From IMG/VR virus record IMGVR_UViG_2671181026_000008: 5,153 nt of DNA, one strand, 5' to 3'. Source of the stretch: a virus (taxonomy: Duplodnaviria; Heunggongvirae; Uroviricota; Caudoviricetes). Every line of letters starts with the position of its first letter. The stretch's first letter is position 1. This document shows, one piece after another, positions 1 through 5,153 of the stretch. The notes beneath the pieces were generated by a model. The model did no database searches and was not told the origin of the DNA. It saw only the letters and a list, made by a program, of their open reading frames with translations. The translations under genes and the position numbers were made by a program.

Positions 1-49
1 TTAAAAAAAGAACAAATGGTAGTGTCCGCTATTGCCAGTACACCTCAGG
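1..49 (+). mobile_element. Right-terminal 49 bp of an IS3-family insertion sequence (window begins inside the element)
   Basis: Positions 1-49 are identical to 2700-2748, i.e. the last codon of the transposase ORF, its stop and the downstream terminal segment ending ...CACCTCAGG. Identity stops abruptly at 49/50 versus 2748/2749, as expected for an IS boundary. Confidence 0.6.
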
Positions 50-189
50 GTATAAGGGGTTATGGCCACCGGACTACCAAACGGCTGCCAGCCCTCTTTC
101 AGTTTATGTGTCAGCTTTTCCGCAAGATCTGACGGCGGCGCCGCCCTGACAACATCATAGTGTTTAAATGCCATGGTTCTTTCCACCAT
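1..189 (-). CDS. Small prophage protein, possibly DUF1737-like (family from memory, unverified); C-terminal ~16 residues and stop codon are encoded by the IS terminus
   Basis: 62-aa ORF from the track. The second in-frame ATG (172-174) has a GGTGGA/GGAAAG Shine-Dalgarno about 8 nt upstream, so the real start is probably there (MAFKHYDVV...). The last residues RCTGNSGHYHLFFF and the TAA stop lie in the 1-49 segment shared with the IS end. Confidence 0.45.
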   Translation of the reverse strand: MVERTMAFKHYDVVRAAPPSDLAEKLTHKLKEGWQPFGSPVAITPYTLRCTGNSGHYHLFFF

Positions 190-434
190 CTGAAAAATAA
201 TTCTTTAAAATACCTGACATGTAATACAGAAAAAACACAAAACCATACCTTAAATAAAAACCTGATTATCAAGCAGATATGCATGGATAAACTACAAGAC
301 GAGATATAAACCACCCTGCATTTAAATAAACAATAAACAACATCAGAAAAATAATTCTGCTCTATGGTTTACATTCAAAAATATCATTTATACTTTTCAG
401 AACATCACCAGCAAGGCATAAACAAGGAAACTAA

Positions 435-770
435 ATGAAGTGGATTGTGATTGATACAGTTATCCAGCCATCATGCGGAATATCTTTTTCAGTCATATGG
501 AGTAAAATAAAATTAATAATCTGGTATCAATCGGATGCTTTCTTACCTCCTGAAAGTATATTTACACTGACTCACACAGGCATCATGCTCAATAACAAAG
601 TGCTACCTGTAACCATTTACAACGTAGTACCATTCAATAAAACATTCTGGAATTCAATCAAAAATAGCCAGGAATGCCCTACAAATACAGATAACGTATT
701 GAATGAATGCTTTAATAACCGTTGCACTCTGCAAATATGTCCTTATGGACTAAAACAACAAAGTCCATAA
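435..770 (+). CDS. Hypothetical 111-aa protein encoded in an AT-rich segment; Cys-rich C-terminal part
   Basis: ORF from the track. AAGGAAA Shine-Dalgarno about 6 nt upstream of the ATG. No competing ORF on either strand across 190-800. AT-rich codon usage unlike the flanks. No recognisable family. Confidence 0.35.
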
Positions 771-806
771 GGAGTTTACTCACATCTGACAAAATCAATA
801 TAAACA

Positions 807-1025
807 GCCCCTCCGGAGAGGGGCTGGAGAGTGGCGCTATGTGCCATTGCATGGTGCCGGGTGCCTCCCGGTGAATTCAGTACCAGCACCTGAATCCGCG
901 ATTATCCCATATACCTACTCGCTGATTGCCCCTCCGCACAGGGGGATTCACCATGCCAGTTTCTTTTAACAAACTCCCCGCAAACCAGACAACAGTCAAC
1001 CGCCTGAATTGTGAAGTATTTAAAA
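807..1025. repeat. Dispersed repeat C, copy 1 (~219 bp, near-identical to 2947-3158); starts with GC-rich hairpin GCCCCTC-CGGA-GAGGGGC at 807-824
   Basis: Direct comparison of the two segments shows only a few substitutions and one 1-nt indel. The hairpin and an internal SD-plus-ATG element are conserved in both copies. Confidence 0.8.
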
Positions 1026-1217
1026 ATTTCTCCCGCTAACTGATACCCGGCTAACAGTCTGGCGTTTTCTTTTTCAGCAACGGGAAAGCAACAACCACCA
1101 CACCCGCCACCAGCACACCGTCAGCCAGCACTGACATTATCCGGCTGCTGCAATGCCATTCACAAAAACAGTAAGCAATCACTTTTTACCGTAACAGGTG
1201 ATAATCCAGATATGTAT

Positions 1218-1571
1218 CTACCCCAGATGAGTAATCCGAAGTTCATCCATACCACAGGTCCTGGCTATTCTGTTGTACTCCTGAACAAGAGCAAATAATT
1301 CTGAATTAGCAACCATGAACTCATCGCAAACCCTCTGTATAGCATCACTATTCAGAATAATAACGTCTCTTCCCGAAAGACGATCAGGAGTACAGAACAA
1401 AACTGTCAAACGGCTGAAGGCCTTTGCTCGTGCTGCATTGACTATATCAATACGCTGCCTAAGGATGAAACACCCCGACGCCTCATCAATATTCACTCTA
1501 CCCACACCATATGAATGATAAATATTTAATGCTGAAAAAACCATTAGACCGTATAACAAACACTCAATCAA
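1218..1571 (-). CDS. Hypothetical protein (117 aa from a TTG start; 108 aa from the first ATG at 1544), unrecognised family, sitting downstream of the tRNA array on the minus strand
   Basis: ORF from the track with a protein-like composition and hydrophobic N-terminus. It lies in a 655-bp segment (about 1027-1681) present only in copy 1. Weak point: no convincing Shine-Dalgarno before either candidate start. Confidence 0.3.
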   Translation of the reverse strand: MIECLLYGLMVFSALNIYHSYGVGRVNIDEASGCFILRQRIDIVNAARAKAFSRLTVLFCTPDRLSGRDVIILNSDAIQRVCDEFMVANSELFALVQEYNRIARTCGMDELRITHLG

Positions 1572-1681
1572 TACTTAACAGAACTTTTATTTTTGACAAA
1601 CATAAAATATTTTCAACAATATCCTGAGCCAGGTATATTTCAGTATAAGGCTCTGCCGGAAGGAATCTGGAAGAATGAATA

Positions 1682-1758
1682 TGGCGCGCTGTACTGGATT
1701 CGAACCAGTGACCGATTGCTTAGAAGGCAATTGCTCTGTCCGGCTGAGCTAACAACGC
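1682..1758 (-). tRNA. tRNA-Arg (anticodon UCU), 77 nt
   Basis: Reverse complement folds as a canonical cloverleaf: acceptor GCGTTGT/ACAGCGC (one G-U pair), D-stem GCTC/GAGC, anticodon stem ATTGC/GCAAT, loop CTTCTAA, T-arm ACTGG-TTCGAAT-CCAGT, discriminator G, encoded CCA. Confidence 0.85.
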
Positions 1759-1771
1759 TGAATACCGATAA

Positions 1772-1851
1772 TGGACCGCCATCGGGGACCCGCCCCCGCA
1801 CCAACAACCCTGTTATCGTGTCGTCTGCTCTTCCTGATAAGCTAATGGCGG
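1772..1851 (-). pseudogene. Degenerate tRNA-like sequence: acceptor stem, D-arm and encoded CCA retained, but the anticodon-arm-to-T-loop core replaced by non-canonical sequence
   Basis: Flanks are identical to the tRNA-Arg(UCG) at 3281-3357 (CCGCCAT...ATGGCGG-T-CCA), but the internal ~43 bp differ completely. No anticodon stem-loop can be drawn, and the only T-arm-like hairpin (CGGGG-GCGGGT-CCCCG) has a 6-nt loop without the TTC motif. Confidence 0.5.
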
Positions 1852-1858
1852 TTTGTGA

Positions 1859-1934
1859 TGGTGGCCCTTGCTGGATTTGAACCAGCGACCTGGCGATTAT
1901 GAGTCGCTCGCTCTCACCACTGAGCTAAAGGGCC
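1859..1934 (-). tRNA. ileZ: tRNA with CAU anticodon, ileX/ileZ-like (tRNA-Ile2 read as lysidine-CAU; automated tools may call it Met), 76 nt
   Basis: Reverse complement GGCCCTT-TA-GCTC...CTCATAA...GCTGG-TTCAAAT-CCAGC-AAGGGCC-A-CCA folds canonically. It closely resembles E. coli ileX as I recall it. Identical to the copy at 3365-3440. Confidence 0.85.
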
Positions 1935-1971
1935 GGGAGCAGAATAATAACGGTCCGTAATTAATTCCGCA

Positions 1972-1995
1972 ATAAAAAACCCGCTCGGCGGCGGG
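1972..1995 (-). terminator. Rho-independent terminator (tR'-like) on the minus strand
   Basis: GC-rich hairpin CCCGC...GCGGG (plus 1980-1995) followed on the minus strand by a run of six T (plus A-run 1974-1979). Confidence 0.5.
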
Positions 1996-2039
1996 TTGTA
2001 GAAACTCTTCTAACGTCAGGCATAAAACGCCCATAGTTA

Positions 2040-2075
2040 TGACGAATTTACCACAGATTCCGGAAAAATCAACCT
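2040..2075 (-). promoter_or_regulatory. Sigma70-type promoter resembling a lambdoid late promoter (pR'-like), minus strand
   Basis: Minus-strand -35 TTGATT (complement of 2067-2072), 16-bp spacer, -10 TAAATT (complement of 2045-2050). The terminator above lies about 60 nt downstream, the promoter-short leader-terminator layout expected for a Q-antiterminated late operon. Confidence 0.3.
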
Positions 2076-2119
2076 AGTTACCTTTTTTAACTGCCGCTCA
2101 GCCCATGCTTCTTCAATAT

Positions 2120-2748
2120 CAAACCGAGTCACCAAAGCGACTACGAACTCGAACCACAATCTGCCAGTTGCGCCAAATCTGCTGAACCAGACGTTCGCTC
2201 CTACAGCACCAAATCAGGTCTGGGTGGCGGACCTGACGTATGTTGCCACACAGGAGGGATGGTTGTACCTCGCTGGCATCAAAGATGTTTATACGTGCGA
2301 AATTGTCGGCTACGCCATGGGAGAGCGCATGACAAAAGAGCTGACAGGTAAAGCCCTGTTTATGGCGCTCAGGAGCCAGCGCCCACCTGCCGGGCTAATC
2401 CACCACTCTGATCGAGGTTCACAGTACTGCGCATACGATTACCGGGTCATACAGGAGCAGTCTGGTCTGAAAACATCAATGTCGCGTAAAGGTAACTGTT
2501 ACGACAACGCTCCGATGGAAAGCTTCTGGGGAACGCTGAAAAATGAGAGCCTGAGCCACTATCGTTTTAATAACCGGGATGAAGCCATCTCAGTAATACG
2601 GGAATACATTGAGATTTTCTACAATCGTCAGCGTCGTCACTCTCGTCTGGGGAATATCTCCCCGGCAGCCTTCAGGGAAAAATATCATCAGATGGCTGCT
2701 TAAAAAAAGAACAAATGGTAGTGTCCGCTATTGCCAGTACACCTCAGG
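2120..2748 (+). mobile_element. IS3-family insertion sequence remnant, 5'-truncated (no OrfA, no left end), intact right terminus
   Basis: Contains the C-terminal part of a DDE transposase OrfB. The element ends ...CACCTCAGG at 2748; on the other strand the terminus reads TGAGGTGTACTGGCAATAGCGGACAC, similar to IS3-type inverted repeats as I recall them. The left boundary is approximate, because repeat F extends to at least 2111. Confidence 0.8.
2122..2703 (+). pseudogene. IS3-family transposase OrfB, C-terminal fragment (DDE integrase core)
   Basis: In-frame translation gives TTNSNHNLPVAPNLLNQTF...PNQVWVADLTYV...HSDRGSQY...NCYDNAPMESFW...RRHS, the hallmark IS3 OrfB motifs including the D, D, E catalytic residues. 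The N-terminal third and OrfA are absent. The track ORF 2224..2703 starts at an internal GTG. Confidence 0.8.
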
Positions 2749-2946
2749 ATAGCGGTCATGTGATGCCGGTTTCCCGGTAACTCAGCACCGGTATCTGAGT
2801 CAACGTTTTCTCTACTGGGTCATTTCCGATACGCCCTGCCTGCTGACAGGCTTTCATCACATCTGAAAATATAGCACCCTGACTGATACTGTAGTACCTA
2901 AGGTTCCAGAAACTGTGATGTATCCGGCACAGAAAAGCCCCTCCGG

Positions 2947-3158
2947 AGAGGGCTGGAGAGTGGCGCTATGTGCCATTGCATGATGCCGGGTGCCTCCCGG
3001 TGAATTCAGTACCAGCACCTGAATCCGCGATTATCCCATATACCTACTCGCTGATTGCCCCTCCGCACAGGGGGATTCACCATGCCAGTTTCTTTTAACA
3101 AACTCCCCGCAAAACAGACAACTGTCAACCGTCTGAATTGTGAGACATTTAAAAAAAA
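2947..3158. repeat. Dispersed repeat C, copy 2 (near-identical to 807-1025); hairpin at 2947-2963 preceded by AAAA on plus, so a possible weak minus-strand terminator
   Basis: Direct sequence comparison with 807-1025. In this copy the segment directly abuts the tRNA-Arg(UCU) at 3191. Confidence 0.8.
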
Positions 3159-3190
3159 GGCCCGCAAAAGCGAGCCAGGGAAAATAAGTG

Positions 3191-3267
3191 TGGCGCGTTG
3201 TACTGGATTCGAACCAGTGACCGATTGCTTAGAAGGCAATTGCTCTGTCCGGCTGAGCTAACAACGC
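3191..3267 (-). tRNA. tRNA-Arg (anticodon UCU), 77 nt
   Basis: Same cloverleaf as 1682-1758, with one substitution that turns the G-U acceptor pair into A-U. Anticodon loop CTTCTAA. Confidence 0.85.
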
Positions 3268-3280
3268 ATGATGCAGATAA

Positions 3281-3357
3281 TGGACCGCCATCGGGGACTT
3301 GAACCCCGCGCAGCCAGCTTCGAAGGCTGGCGCTCTTTCCTGATGAGCTAATGGCGG
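3281..3357 (-). tRNA. tRNA-Arg (anticodon UCG), 77 nt
   Basis: Reverse complement folds canonically: acceptor CCGCCAT/ATGGCGG, D-stem GCTC/GAGC, anticodon stem CCAGC/GCTGG, loop CTTCGAA, T-arm CGGGG-TTCAAGT-CCCCG, discriminator T, encoded CCA. Confidence 0.8.
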
Positions 3358-3364
3358 TATGTGA

Positions 3365-3440
3365 TGGTGGCCCTTGCTGGATTTGAACCAGCGACCTGGC
3401 GATTATGAGTCGCTCGCTCTCACCACTGAGCTAAAGGGCC
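3365..3440 (-). tRNA. ileZ: tRNA with CAU anticodon, ileX/ileZ-like (tRNA-Ile2), 76 nt
   Basis: Identical to 1859-1934. Anticodon loop CTCATAA, T-loop TTCAAAT, encoded CCA. Confidence 0.85.
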
Positions 3441-3480
3441 GGGAGCCGCATAATAACGACGCGTAATTAATTCTTCAATA

Positions 3481-4539
3481 TCATCCGTTCTGGCTGACTA
3501 AATCCTGTACTTCCCGAACCGTCTGCTCAAAACGTTCAGTCTCCAGCTCAACGCCAATTGCACGACGCCCGAGCGCCAGTGCCGCTTTCACTGTCGAACC
3601 CAACCCCATGAAAAAATCTGCAATCAGGTCACCCGGACGACTGCTAGCGCTGATTATCTGCTGCAGCATTTCTGCCGGTTTTTCGCACGGATGTTTCCCG
3701 GGATAGAACTGCACCGGTTTATGCGTCCACACATCGGTATACGGCACCTGCACCGTCACGCCAAAATACCGCCGCAGATGTTTATATTCACTCAGCAGCT
3801 CCGCATACTGCCGGTTCAGTGAGGTATACGTATCCACCAGCTGGTGGTGGAGCTTTTCCAGTTCACCACGCCGATGCTTCTCTTCTGCCACCCGGGCAAA
3901 CAGCGCCTGTAATTTCAGATAATCGCTTTCATTCGGCAACTGCCACTGACCGGCACTGAACCAGTGCGACACCATGTTTTTCTTTCCTGTGGCATCTGCA
4001 ATCTGTTTTGCCGTTATCCCCAGGGCAGCTCGCGCATCACGAAAGTAAGAAATCAGCGGGGCCATCACATGCTGTTTCAGTGCACTGCCCTTCGCCGCAT
4101 ACCCGGCATCTTTCGGACGATACGGCCCCTGATAATGTTCCGCGAACAGAATGCGCTCTGTGGCGGGGAAATACGCCCGCAGGCTTTCCTTGTTGCATCC
4201 GTTCCAGCGTCCGGACGGCTTCGCCCAGATAATATGGTTCAGCACACTGAAGCGTTCACGCATCATGATTTCGATATCAGATGCCAGGCGATGACCACAG
4301 AACAGGTAAAGACTTCCGGCAGGTTTCAGCACCCGCCAGAACTGCGCCAGACACTGGTCCAGCCACTTCAGGTAATCATCGTCGCCCTTCCACTGGTTAT
4401 CCCAGCCCTCAGGCTTCACTTTAAAGTACGGCGGGTCCGTGACTATCAGGTCAACAGAATTTTCGGGTAACGACCGGATAAATTCCAGGCAGTCGGCGTT
4501 GATTAACTCACAACTGGATATTTTTACAGTATTAAGCAT
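3481..4539 (-). CDS. DNA methyltransferase, beta-class amino-MTase (N6-adenine or N4-cytosine), no cognate restriction endonuclease in the window
   Basis: 352-aa ORF. Catalytic motif IV DPPY (LIVTDPPYF) lies near the N-terminus and the AdoMet motif I FxGxG (DFFMGLGST) near the C-terminus, the circularly permuted order that defines beta-class amino-MTases. ATG at 4537-4539 is immediately preceded by an in-frame TGA. Shine-Dalgarno is weak. Confidence 0.9.
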   Translation of the reverse strand: MLNTVKISSCELINADCLEFIRSLPENSVDLIVTDPPYFKVKPEGWDNQWKGDDDYLKWLDQCLAQFWRVLKPAGSLYLFCGHRLASDIEIMMRERFSVLNHIIWAKPSGRWNGCNKESLRAYFPATERILFAEHYQGPYRPKDAGYAAKGSALKQHVMAPLISYFRDARAALGITAKQIADATGKKNMVSHWFSAGQWQLPNESDYLKLQALFARVAEEKHRRGELEKLHHQLVDTYTSLNRQYAELLSEYKHLRRYFGVTVQVPYTDVWTHKPVQFYPGKHPCEKPAEMLQQIISASSRPGDLIADFFMGLGSTVKAALALGRRAIGVELETERFEQTVREVQDLVSQNG

Positions 4540-4675
4540 GGATCATTAAGCCTGTCTCTGATAGGCTCATTCTGCTTTTGCGCAAAGCAGTGGGCCTGAG
4601 GTTTGCTTGTGAACCCAACGCATGAGCAGATGGCTGGTGGGTGCCCCTAACACCCACCAGCCGCCCATTTACCAC

Positions 4676-4703
4676 AAATAAAAAAGCCTTCACTGCGGAA
4701 GGC
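4676..4703 (-). terminator. Rho-independent terminator on the minus strand, overlapping the stop codon of the 65-aa ORF
   Basis: Hairpin GCCTTC-ACTGCG-GAAGGC (plus 4686-4703) followed on the minus strand by TTTTTTATTT (plus 4676-4685). Confidence 0.5.
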
Positions 4704-4887
4704 GTCTGTAACAACCGAACTGATAGTCTGCCAGACCCGCCATAACCAGCTGGGTCAGTATTAACTGGCAGCGTTCGCGTGAAAGGTAAGTATTCTGCGC
4801 TATCTCCCCGACTGTCGCCGGTTCGGTAACGCTTAATTCATTAAACACCACTCTGGCGGTTTCTGTCATATCCTGCTGTTTTAGCAT
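4690..4887 (-). CDS. Small (65 aa) putative winged-helix/HTH DNA-binding protein, unassigned family
   Basis: ORF with a good Shine-Dalgarno (AAGGAAAAG, about 6 nt before the ATG at 4885-4887). The segment TVGEIAQNTYLSRERCQLILTQLVMAGL has the hydrophobic/polar pattern of a helix-turn-helix recognition region. Bracketed by intrinsic terminators on both sides. Confidence 0.45.
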   Translation of the reverse strand: MLKQQDMTETARVVFNELSVTEPATVGEIAQNTYLSRERCQLILTQLVMAGLADYQFGCYRRLPQ

Positions 4888-5005
4888 GTCTTTTCCTTTT
4901 CCGGTTAACGTGACACACCAATAACTCTTGTCGAAAAAGCCAGCAAGCTGAAAGACAGGTATTCACCGCCACCAGCGCGTTTACTGTACTGACGCGATTT
5001 CAGTC

Positions 5006-5029
5006 ATAAAAAACCCGCTCGGCGGCGGG
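5006..5029 (-). terminator. Rho-independent terminator (tR'-like), second copy
   Basis: Same hairpin CCCGC...GCGGG (plus 5014-5029) followed on the minus strand by six T (plus A-run 5008-5013). Part of repeat F2 (5008-5153), which matches 1974-2111. Confidence 0.5.
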
Positions 5030-5074
5030 TTGTAGAAACTCTTCTAACGTCAGGCATAAAACGCCCATCGTTAT

Positions 5075-5110
5075 GACGAATTTACCACAGATTCCGGAAA
5101 AATCAACCTT
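5075..5110 (-). promoter_or_regulatory. pR'-like sigma70 promoter, second copy
   Basis: Minus-strand -35 TTGATT (complement of 5101-5106), 16-bp spacer, -10 TAAATT (complement of 5079-5084). This copy has an 8-bp tandem duplication (TTGTTACC/TAGTTACC) just upstream of the -35. Confidence 0.3.
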
Positions 5111-5153
5111 GTTACCTAGTTACCTTTTTTAACTGCCGCTCAGCCCATGCTTC

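Follow-up and report, generated by a model that had tools for sequence, protein, structure and literature searches.

Two lambdoid late-control modules, apparently from different Shigella sonnei prophage remnants, on one stretch of viral DNA

The described systems closest to the DNA analyzed here are the pR'/qut/6S RNA/tR' unit of phage lambda, in which the pR' leader is 194 nucleotides (nt) long, and the late regions of certain lambdoid phages and prophages. In the Shiga toxin 2a (Stx2a) phage Stx2_EH2246 (LC567837) the order is Q, orf65, methylase, the tRNA genes Ile2/Arg/Arg, stx2A, stx2B, C region, iraM and nanS-p, and a non-toxigenic lambdoid prophage of E. coli ST131 strain EC958 (NZ_HG941718, 1.445-1.460 Mb) has one single-copy module with Q, orf65, methylase, tRNA-Ile, tRNA-Arg, DUF3927, C region, iraM and nanS-p. 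The stretch of 5,153 nt from the virus record IMGVR_UViG_2671181026_000008 (referred to throughout, at its full length, as the window) carries two copies of a module of this kind. Each runs on the minus strand from the 3' end of the antiterminator gene Q through the promoter pR' with its pause element, the terminator tR', tRNA genes and a cargo slot to the small RNA (sRNA) gene STnc100 and its terminator. Comparison with public genomes indicates that the copies are late-control regions from two distinct S. sonnei prophages, both lambdoid and decayed, and thus xenologues rather than the products of a local duplication.

BLAST revealed that window positions 1-2134 are 100% identical to a prophage remnant at the yecE site of S. 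sonnei (loci L014, L017 and L021), and that positions 2136-5153 are 100% identical to a remnant at the ompW site (L004 and L005); L004 and L014 come from one and the same assembly. The three complete chromosomes in which both loci were located (CP104423, CBDDMI01 and HE616528) place them 671, 666 and 782 kb apart, respectively, in the same orientation. Two gene products lead to the same two places: the 352-amino-acid (aa) methyltransferase of the window recurs, residue for residue, in an S. sonnei remnant flanked by ompW/yciC/yciB, and the exact 57-aa product of an open reading frame (ORF) that runs from nanS-p into the insertion sequence (IS) IS600 recurs in a remnant flanked by a yecE fragment, yecN, cmoA and cmoB and, on the other side, by ipaH. 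The yecE gene is a known integration site of Stx phages (PMC8065619). The original prediction, made from the sequence alone, had offered either a recent duplication followed by divergence or two related prophages that had become joined. The second alternative is borne out, since the halves correspond to the ompW-site and yecE-site remnants; the first is contradicted by the 100% identity of each half to a separate S. sonnei locus, 666-782 kb from the other. Copies at distant loci, which the prediction itself had named as the outcome that would speak against it, are what the public complete genomes contain. In one complete S. sonnei genome, LR213449.1 (L010 1-5428 vs L014 15555-10128), an inversion of ~0.67 Mb lies between the IS600 copies of the ompW- and yecE-site remnants, with the yecE-prophage right flank (Dam methylase side) joined via IS600 to the ompW-prophage early region.

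The three repeat families that had been predicted, in the same order on the minus strand, were recovered when the window was compared with itself. Family C pairs 803-1026 with 2933-3155 (96.0% over 224 nt), the tRNA block pairs 1669-1974 with 3179-3480 (87.3% over 307 nt), and family F, which holds the Q 3' end, pR' and tR', pairs 1972-2111 with 5006-5153 (93.9%, one 8-nt indel), its homology extending to 2134 when aligned to the native locus. Repeats hundreds of bases long at 87-96% identity are well past chance. A fourth repeat, which the prediction had missed, pairs 1-52 with 2700-2751; it consists of the 47-nt right end of IS600 and 2 chance bases, the shared bases past the IS600 end being just GG.

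The two copies are not most closely related to each other: their mutual identity is 87-96%, whereas copy 1 shares 99.1% with the EC958 prophage (window 45-1973, including a relic tRNA gene, DUF3927, STnc100, iraM and the start of nanS-p). Nor do independent assemblies have adjacent copies with a duplication-type joint: the loci lie 666-782 kb apart, and the polarity of the joint is of the deletion type. The separate loci of 100% identity, the 87-96% identity between the copies and the 99.1% match of copy 1 to EC958 thus argue for homologous modules of two phages, not sister copies. The copies also differ in content. A 65-aa ORF and the DNA methyltransferase gene stand between tR' and the tRNA genes in copy 2 only, and within the window iraM and the start of nanS-p follow STnc100 in copy 1. 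The methyltransferase segment and a 655-bp segment of copy 1 had been put down to indels after duplication, an interpretation that does not hold, as both segments exist as such in unrelated phages and prophages. Because both layouts and the relic tRNA gene are seen in other phages and prophages, the indels would be pre-existing module variants rather than post-duplication events. The EC958 module differs from copy 1 in that its methylase lies between Q and the tRNA genes; the isolated phage vB_EcoS-640R1 has a methylase-free layout in which Q is followed directly by a tRNA gene, as in copy 1. The single-copy EC958-type module also accounts for the 417 complete E. coli genomes in which a stretch of ~3.6 kb covers 83% of the window.

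Family F had been read as a pR'-like promoter with a terminator, and alignment with lambda agrees. At the sequence level, the -10 element TAAATT and the pause element AACGATGGG of copy 2 match lambda pR' exactly, the latter being the sigma70-dependent pause element of lambda; a -35-like TTGATT lies upstream, and an intrinsic terminator, a hairpin plus U-tract, follows ~60 nt downstream of the promoter. The spacer is 16 nt compared with 17 in lambda, and the leader of ~60 nt is shorter than lambda's. Copy 1 departs further from lambda, with the pause element AACTAT, a G-to-T change from AACGAT (2035 vs 5069), and with a Q frame that runs over the promoter. A generic promoter scan did not flag pR', which had 8/12 matches and fell under the scan threshold. 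Positions 5112-5153 and 2037-2135 align with the 3' ends of annotated or called Q genes (Pfam Antiterm; L001, L003 and L014), and both Q pieces in the window are 3' fragments only. The 8-nt indel lies directly upstream of the -35 element (2064-2072 vs 5098-5113) and deletes the Q stop codon in copy 1, so that the yecE-site Q is 284 aa long, reading across its own pR', and the ompW-site Q is 273 aa long. The yecE-site Q is full length (284 aa) in 10 of the 10 places listed.

The tRNA coordinates of the prediction coincide exactly with the calls made by ARAGORN, and the tRNA with anticodon CAT is named tRNA-Ile by PGAP in the 99%-similar EC958 prophage region. Copies 1 and 2 have the same Ile2 gene sequence, and their Arg(TCT) genes are 1 base apart. 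The Arg(TCG) gene of copy 1 is a relic that retains both ends of the acceptor arm around a replaced interior; the presence of the same relic in the 99%-identical E. coli ST131 prophage indicates that it is old and widespread. The Stx-phage-type array (ileZ-argN-argO type, with Ile2/Arg(TCG)/Arg(TCT) between tR' and the cargo slot) is thus complete in copy 2 and reduced to two intact genes and a relic in copy 1.

A likeness to the Q-tRNA-stx neighborhood of Stx phages, with no toxin genes present, had also been proposed, and copy 2 indeed has the layout of Stx2_EH2246 with an empty slot. The gene order is the same, the three tRNA genes stand in the same order, and identity is 92-93% over the methylase, the tRNA genes and the post-stx region. 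Where Stx2_EH2246 has stx2AB, copy 2 has a toxin-free slot of 35 bp with a terminator only, and no stxA or stxB ORF was found in the cargo slots among the ORFs of the window. This terminator hairpin (3176-3159, minus strand) is strong, has a T8 tract, directly follows tRNA-Arg(TCT) and scores z=-3.8 against shuffled sequences. The filled slot of copy 1 is 99% identical to segments at the same position in E. coli ST131 prophages. The antiterminators are of another type, with 273-284 aa (Pfam Antiterm PF03589) in the prophages represented in the window compared with 126 aa in Stx2_EH2246, and the homology of the window to Stx2a phages therefore ends at tR' (window 5031). Literature searches for the exact combinations ileZ/argN/argO/stx and S. 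sonnei/ompW/yecE/prophage returned nothing.

Family C, which the prediction had treated as an anonymous repeat, is assigned by an Rfam covariance model to the known prophage sRNA gene STnc100. Both copies match model positions 1-206 of 206 of RF02076 well over the gathering score of 47, with no notable difference from the family. Copy 1 ends at a terminator hairpin (826-805, z=-4.2); in copy 2 a terminator-like hairpin (2954-2936) was found by a consensus scan, and its fold is no better than shuffled (z=-1.05). STnc100 comes directly after the cargo slot, in the place that follows stx2B in Stx2a phages. The family has been described as prophage- and Stx-phage-associated, near esterase genes, and as a marker of Stx-type phages (bioRxiv 10.64898/2026.05.13.724894).

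By analogy with lambda and Stx phages, each module is proposed to act as a Q-gated transcription unit. RNA polymerase starting from pR' would pause at the -10-like element and, without Q, would stop at tR' after ~60 nt to give a short leader RNA. Q loaded at the paused complex would make the polymerase resistant to termination, and transcription could then continue beyond tR' over the tRNA genes, cargo slot and STnc100 in the direction of nanS-p and the lysis genes. The module's tRNAs are predicted to decode the rare codons AUA, CGA and AGA/AGG. Both S. sonnei prophages are defective. Downstream of the module, outside the window, the native ompW locus has nanS-p, holin and DUF1327 genes. The native yecE locus has a nanS-p interrupted by IS600 near codon 44 and lacks lysis genes beyond it, which makes the yecE module a relic. 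All functional parts come from described families (Q/pR'/tR', rare-codon tRNAs, STnc100, iraM, nanS-p, methyltransferase and IS600), and no new mechanism is involved.

The two halves meet at position 2135, beside a partial IS600. An IS3 remnant had been predicted between the copies; the IS3-family element is real and comprises IS600 nt 654-1264, whereas positions 2112-2135, which had been included in it, are Q-gene sequence. The IS600 pieces of the window are 99.8-100% identical to IS600 copies of S. sonnei and E. coli (99-100% across annotated copies), and the internal piece matches the IS3-type DDE (rve) transposase family (NCBIfam transpos_IS3, E=3e-59). Compared with IS600 itself (IS3 family, 1264 bp), the internal piece lacks nt 1-653, with the left inverted repeat, orfA and the 5' part of orfB, which leaves it unable to transpose, and its left boundary does not coincide with either end of the IS. 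The window holds no complete IS600 with both inverted repeats, orfA and orfB, the piece at 1-47 being cut by the window end. The junction reads ...GAGTCACCA-A-AGCGACTACG..., where native Q runs on as GCGCATCAT and native IS600 carries CAG ahead of AGCGAC. The two parents therefore share 2 nt of microhomology (CA) at the join, and base 2135 (A) fits neither of them. Both breakpoints are internal, in Q 32 codons before the stop and in IS600 at nt 654, and the join corresponds neither to a transposition end nor to an event at the end of an IS.

The IS600 piece and the copy-1 half are colinear with the yecE locus (L013 1882 to 2493, then 8041 to 10174), which amounts to a deletion of 5,547 bp. The deleted part holds the 5' half of the upstream IS600, another IS3-family element, an IS21 element, rusA and most of Q. 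On this reading, the only switch from one locus to the other can fall anywhere within the 611-bp IS600 piece, which is identical in both loci, and a switch inside IS600 is where homologous recombination and a repeat-induced assembly error alike would fall. In 10 of the 10 ompW-site places listed, copy 2 leads on to nanS-p, either by way of a full IS600 or with none in between.

A 36-mer that spans the junction (2118-2153, ATCAAACCGAGTCACCAAAGCGACTACGAACTCGAA) had no match in scans of genome_contigs, viral_contigs and metagenome_contigs. When the junction region was compared by BLAST with complete E. coli genomes, plasmids and phages, the only matches were to IS600 or Q, and all of them stopped at the junction. 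Three possible junction-spanning ORFs (40, 32 and 31 aa) are not on record in the gene index, and the 159-aa product of the truncated orfB has 10 contexts there, none window-like. The informative negatives among these are the E. coli, plasmid and phage collections and ~50 S. sonnei contigs.

On balance we consider it probable, if only slightly so, that the source isolate carries a true deletion scar and that an assembly error connected the multi-copy IS600 to the ompW flank. A 5.5-kb deletion inside the yecE locus, from the upstream IS600 into Q, would have made the Q'/IS600 fusion; the link from the IS600 piece to the ompW flank would be a repeat-induced mis-join, and the tandem arrangement would then be nonexistent in the chromosome. 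Several points weigh against this explanation. The ends of the window lack the consistent k-mer overlap signature of a short-read contig, and IS600-mediated exchange between the same two remnants is known in nature (LR213449.1). The searches for the junction also tell less than they might: a control, the native junction of IS600 with the ompW flank that is present in most S. sonnei, is likewise absent from genome_contigs and metagenome_contigs, so that the negatives from these two collections, which by this control are without the S. sonnei lineage, are uninformative. Each look-up covered the 24 index blocks with the longest contigs, and a window-like isolate could be among thousands of other blocks.

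Alternatively, the join could be real in the source isolate, a strain-specific rearrangement having put the ompW- and yecE-site remnants in tandem; we regard this as possible but rather doubtful. The route would be two successive inversions between IS600 copies in opposite orientation (a1 x b1, then a2 x the hybrid copy), followed by the 5.5-kb deletion from IS600 nt 653 into the yecE-site Q. The outcome, to be taken just as tentatively, would be a composite locus with a single intact ompW-site Q upstream of two consecutive pR'-tR'-tRNA-STnc100 modules. Such a history is in keeping with the IS-mediated inversions that are frequent in S. sonnei genomes (PMC12795559) and with the IS600 x IS600 inversion of LR213449.1, which ends in exactly these two remnants. 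The IS600 copies of both loci are identical across 611 bp, and the non-homologous junction, with its 2-nt microhomology and one unmatched base, resembles a scar of illegitimate recombination, not a k-mer graph error. Against this, the arrangement is in none of the complete chromosomes read, a viable route requires at least three separate events, and the same orientation of the loci in the reference makes the joint of the deletion type, which would remove ~0.67 Mb. On the K-12 map this interval presumably includes the terminus region and essential genes. If the source isolate does carry the join, the window would be one more strain-specific structural variant of S. sonnei, useful for typing and for assembly quality control, and would document a step in the remodeling and merging of decaying prophages by IS elements across the replication terminus.

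It is improbable that the whole junction is artificial, made by a chimeric read or contig or by in-silico splicing with no deletion in the isolate. The junction is unique and practically homology-free, one breakpoint falls within a gene and the other within an IS, base 2135 fits neither parent, and the three junction-spanning ORFs are missing from the gene index, all of which a pure chimera would explain. However, the pair of breakpoints is exactly colinear with a simple deletion within one locus, which would be a coincidence for a random chimera, and de Bruijn assemblers need a shared k-mer to join sequences. Least credible by far is a tandem duplication of one module with later divergence by indels: the order of the three families, the identical Ile2 genes and the near-identical Arg(TCT) genes are what it would produce, but the copies are 100% identical to different chromosomal loci of the same genomes, differ by 4-13% from each other, are less alike than copy 1 and the E. 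coli ST131 prophage (99.1%), contain a methyltransferase block, a 655-bp block and a relic tRNA gene that are all present in unrelated phages or prophages, and meet at a joint whose polarity is not of the duplication type.

Two cautions follow for similar records. The paralogous late regions of co-resident lambdoid prophages, when they occur on one contig, mimic a tandem duplication, and Shigella genomes with many IS600 copies readily undergo true IS-mediated exchange between prophages and are also easily mis-joined at repeats. The features of the window are collected in Table 1.

Table 1. Features of the 5,153-nt window in order of position; promoter and terminator elements are given after the family F copy to which they belong.
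Feature	Position	Strand	Remarks
IS600 right end, nt 1218-1264	1..47	+	From the full-length copy truncating nanS-p at the yecE-site remnant
nanS-p esterase N-terminal DUF1737 fragment, cut by IS600	1..174	-	57-aa ORF ending in the IS; Pfam DUF1737, E=1e-15
Prophage iraM homologue (anti-adapter)	435..770	+	NCBIfam PRK09919, E=5e-48; convergent with late transcription
STnc100 sRNA gene, copy 1 (predicted)	796..985	-	Rfam RF02076, 132.4 bits; core of family C
Cargo (moron) slot, copy 1, filled	1027..1681	-	DUF3927/TciB-like ORF 1051-1182; phrog_2873 ORF 1218-1571
tRNA array, copy 1	1682..1934	-	Arg(TCT) 1682-1758; Arg(TCG) relic 1759-1858; Ile2 (CAT) 1859-1934 (ARAGORN)
F1 (family F, copy 1)	1972..2135	-	Last 32 codons of yecE-prophage Q (2135-2037), overlapping pR'-like promoter, tR'
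F1 promoter	-35 2072-2067; -10 2050-2045; pause-like AACTAT 2038-2033	-	Lambda pR' alignment
F1 tR' terminator	1997-1978	-	7-bp G+C-rich stem and T-rich tail (TTTTAT)
5'-truncated IS600, nt 654-1264 (611 bp)	2136..2746	+	3' part of orfB (ORF 2224-2703)
Non-coding flank of ompW-site prophage	2747..2932	.	100% identity to L004/L005; native full-length IS600 insertion site in most S. sonnei
STnc100 sRNA gene, copy 2 (predicted)	2925..3114	-	Rfam RF02076, 123.6 bits; family C
Cargo slot, copy 2, empty, 35 bp	3156..3190	-	Position of stx2AB in Stx2a phages; terminator hairpin only
tRNA array, copy 2	3191..3440	-	Arg(TCT) 3191-3267; Arg(TCG) 3281-3357; Ile2 (CAT) 3365-3440 (ARAGORN)
N6/N4 DNA methyltransferase, 352 aa	3481..4539	-	Pfam PF01555, E=8e-42
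65-aa phage ORF, phrog_331	4690..4887	-	Between tR' and methyltransferase; same position in EC958 and Stx2a phages
F2 (family F, copy 2)	5006..5153	-	ompW-prophage Q 3' end (5153-5112), then pR'-like promoter, tR'
F2 promoter	-35 5106-5101; -10 5084-5079; pause element AACGAT 5072-5067	-	Lambda pR' alignment
F2 tR' terminator	5031-5012	-	7-bp G+C-rich stem and T-rich tail (TTTTAT)

At the native yecE locus, the complete 1264-bp IS600 whose right end opens the window runs on leftward past the window start. The IS600 beside copy 2 (2746/2747) is polymorphic, being present in L003-L006 and L008-L010 and absent from strain 53G (HE616528, L007), L011 and L012. A common nanS-p site for both IS600 ends was considered and rejected, since one IS600 interrupts nanS-p near codon 44, the other stands ~530 bp ahead of nanS-p, and only GG is shared past the IS end. 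In some S. sonnei, the upstream IS600 of the yecE module is split by an IS1 (L014 1106-3145), which gives the same 159-aa orfB fragment call from an unrelated cause; IS1 within this IS600 was likewise rejected as the cause of the breakpoint, because it lies at IS600 nt 506-514 and the breakpoint at nt 654. The idea that the window is a de Bruijn contig with a k readable from its ends was also discarded, the left end giving a k of ~47-50 and the right end ~41, which are inconsistent.

IraM is an anti-adapter that stabilizes RpoS. The iraM homologue of the window lies between STnc100 and nanS-p, in copy 1 only, and is also found in Stx2a phages and in ST131 prophages; in the former and in EC958 it is annotated as IraM.

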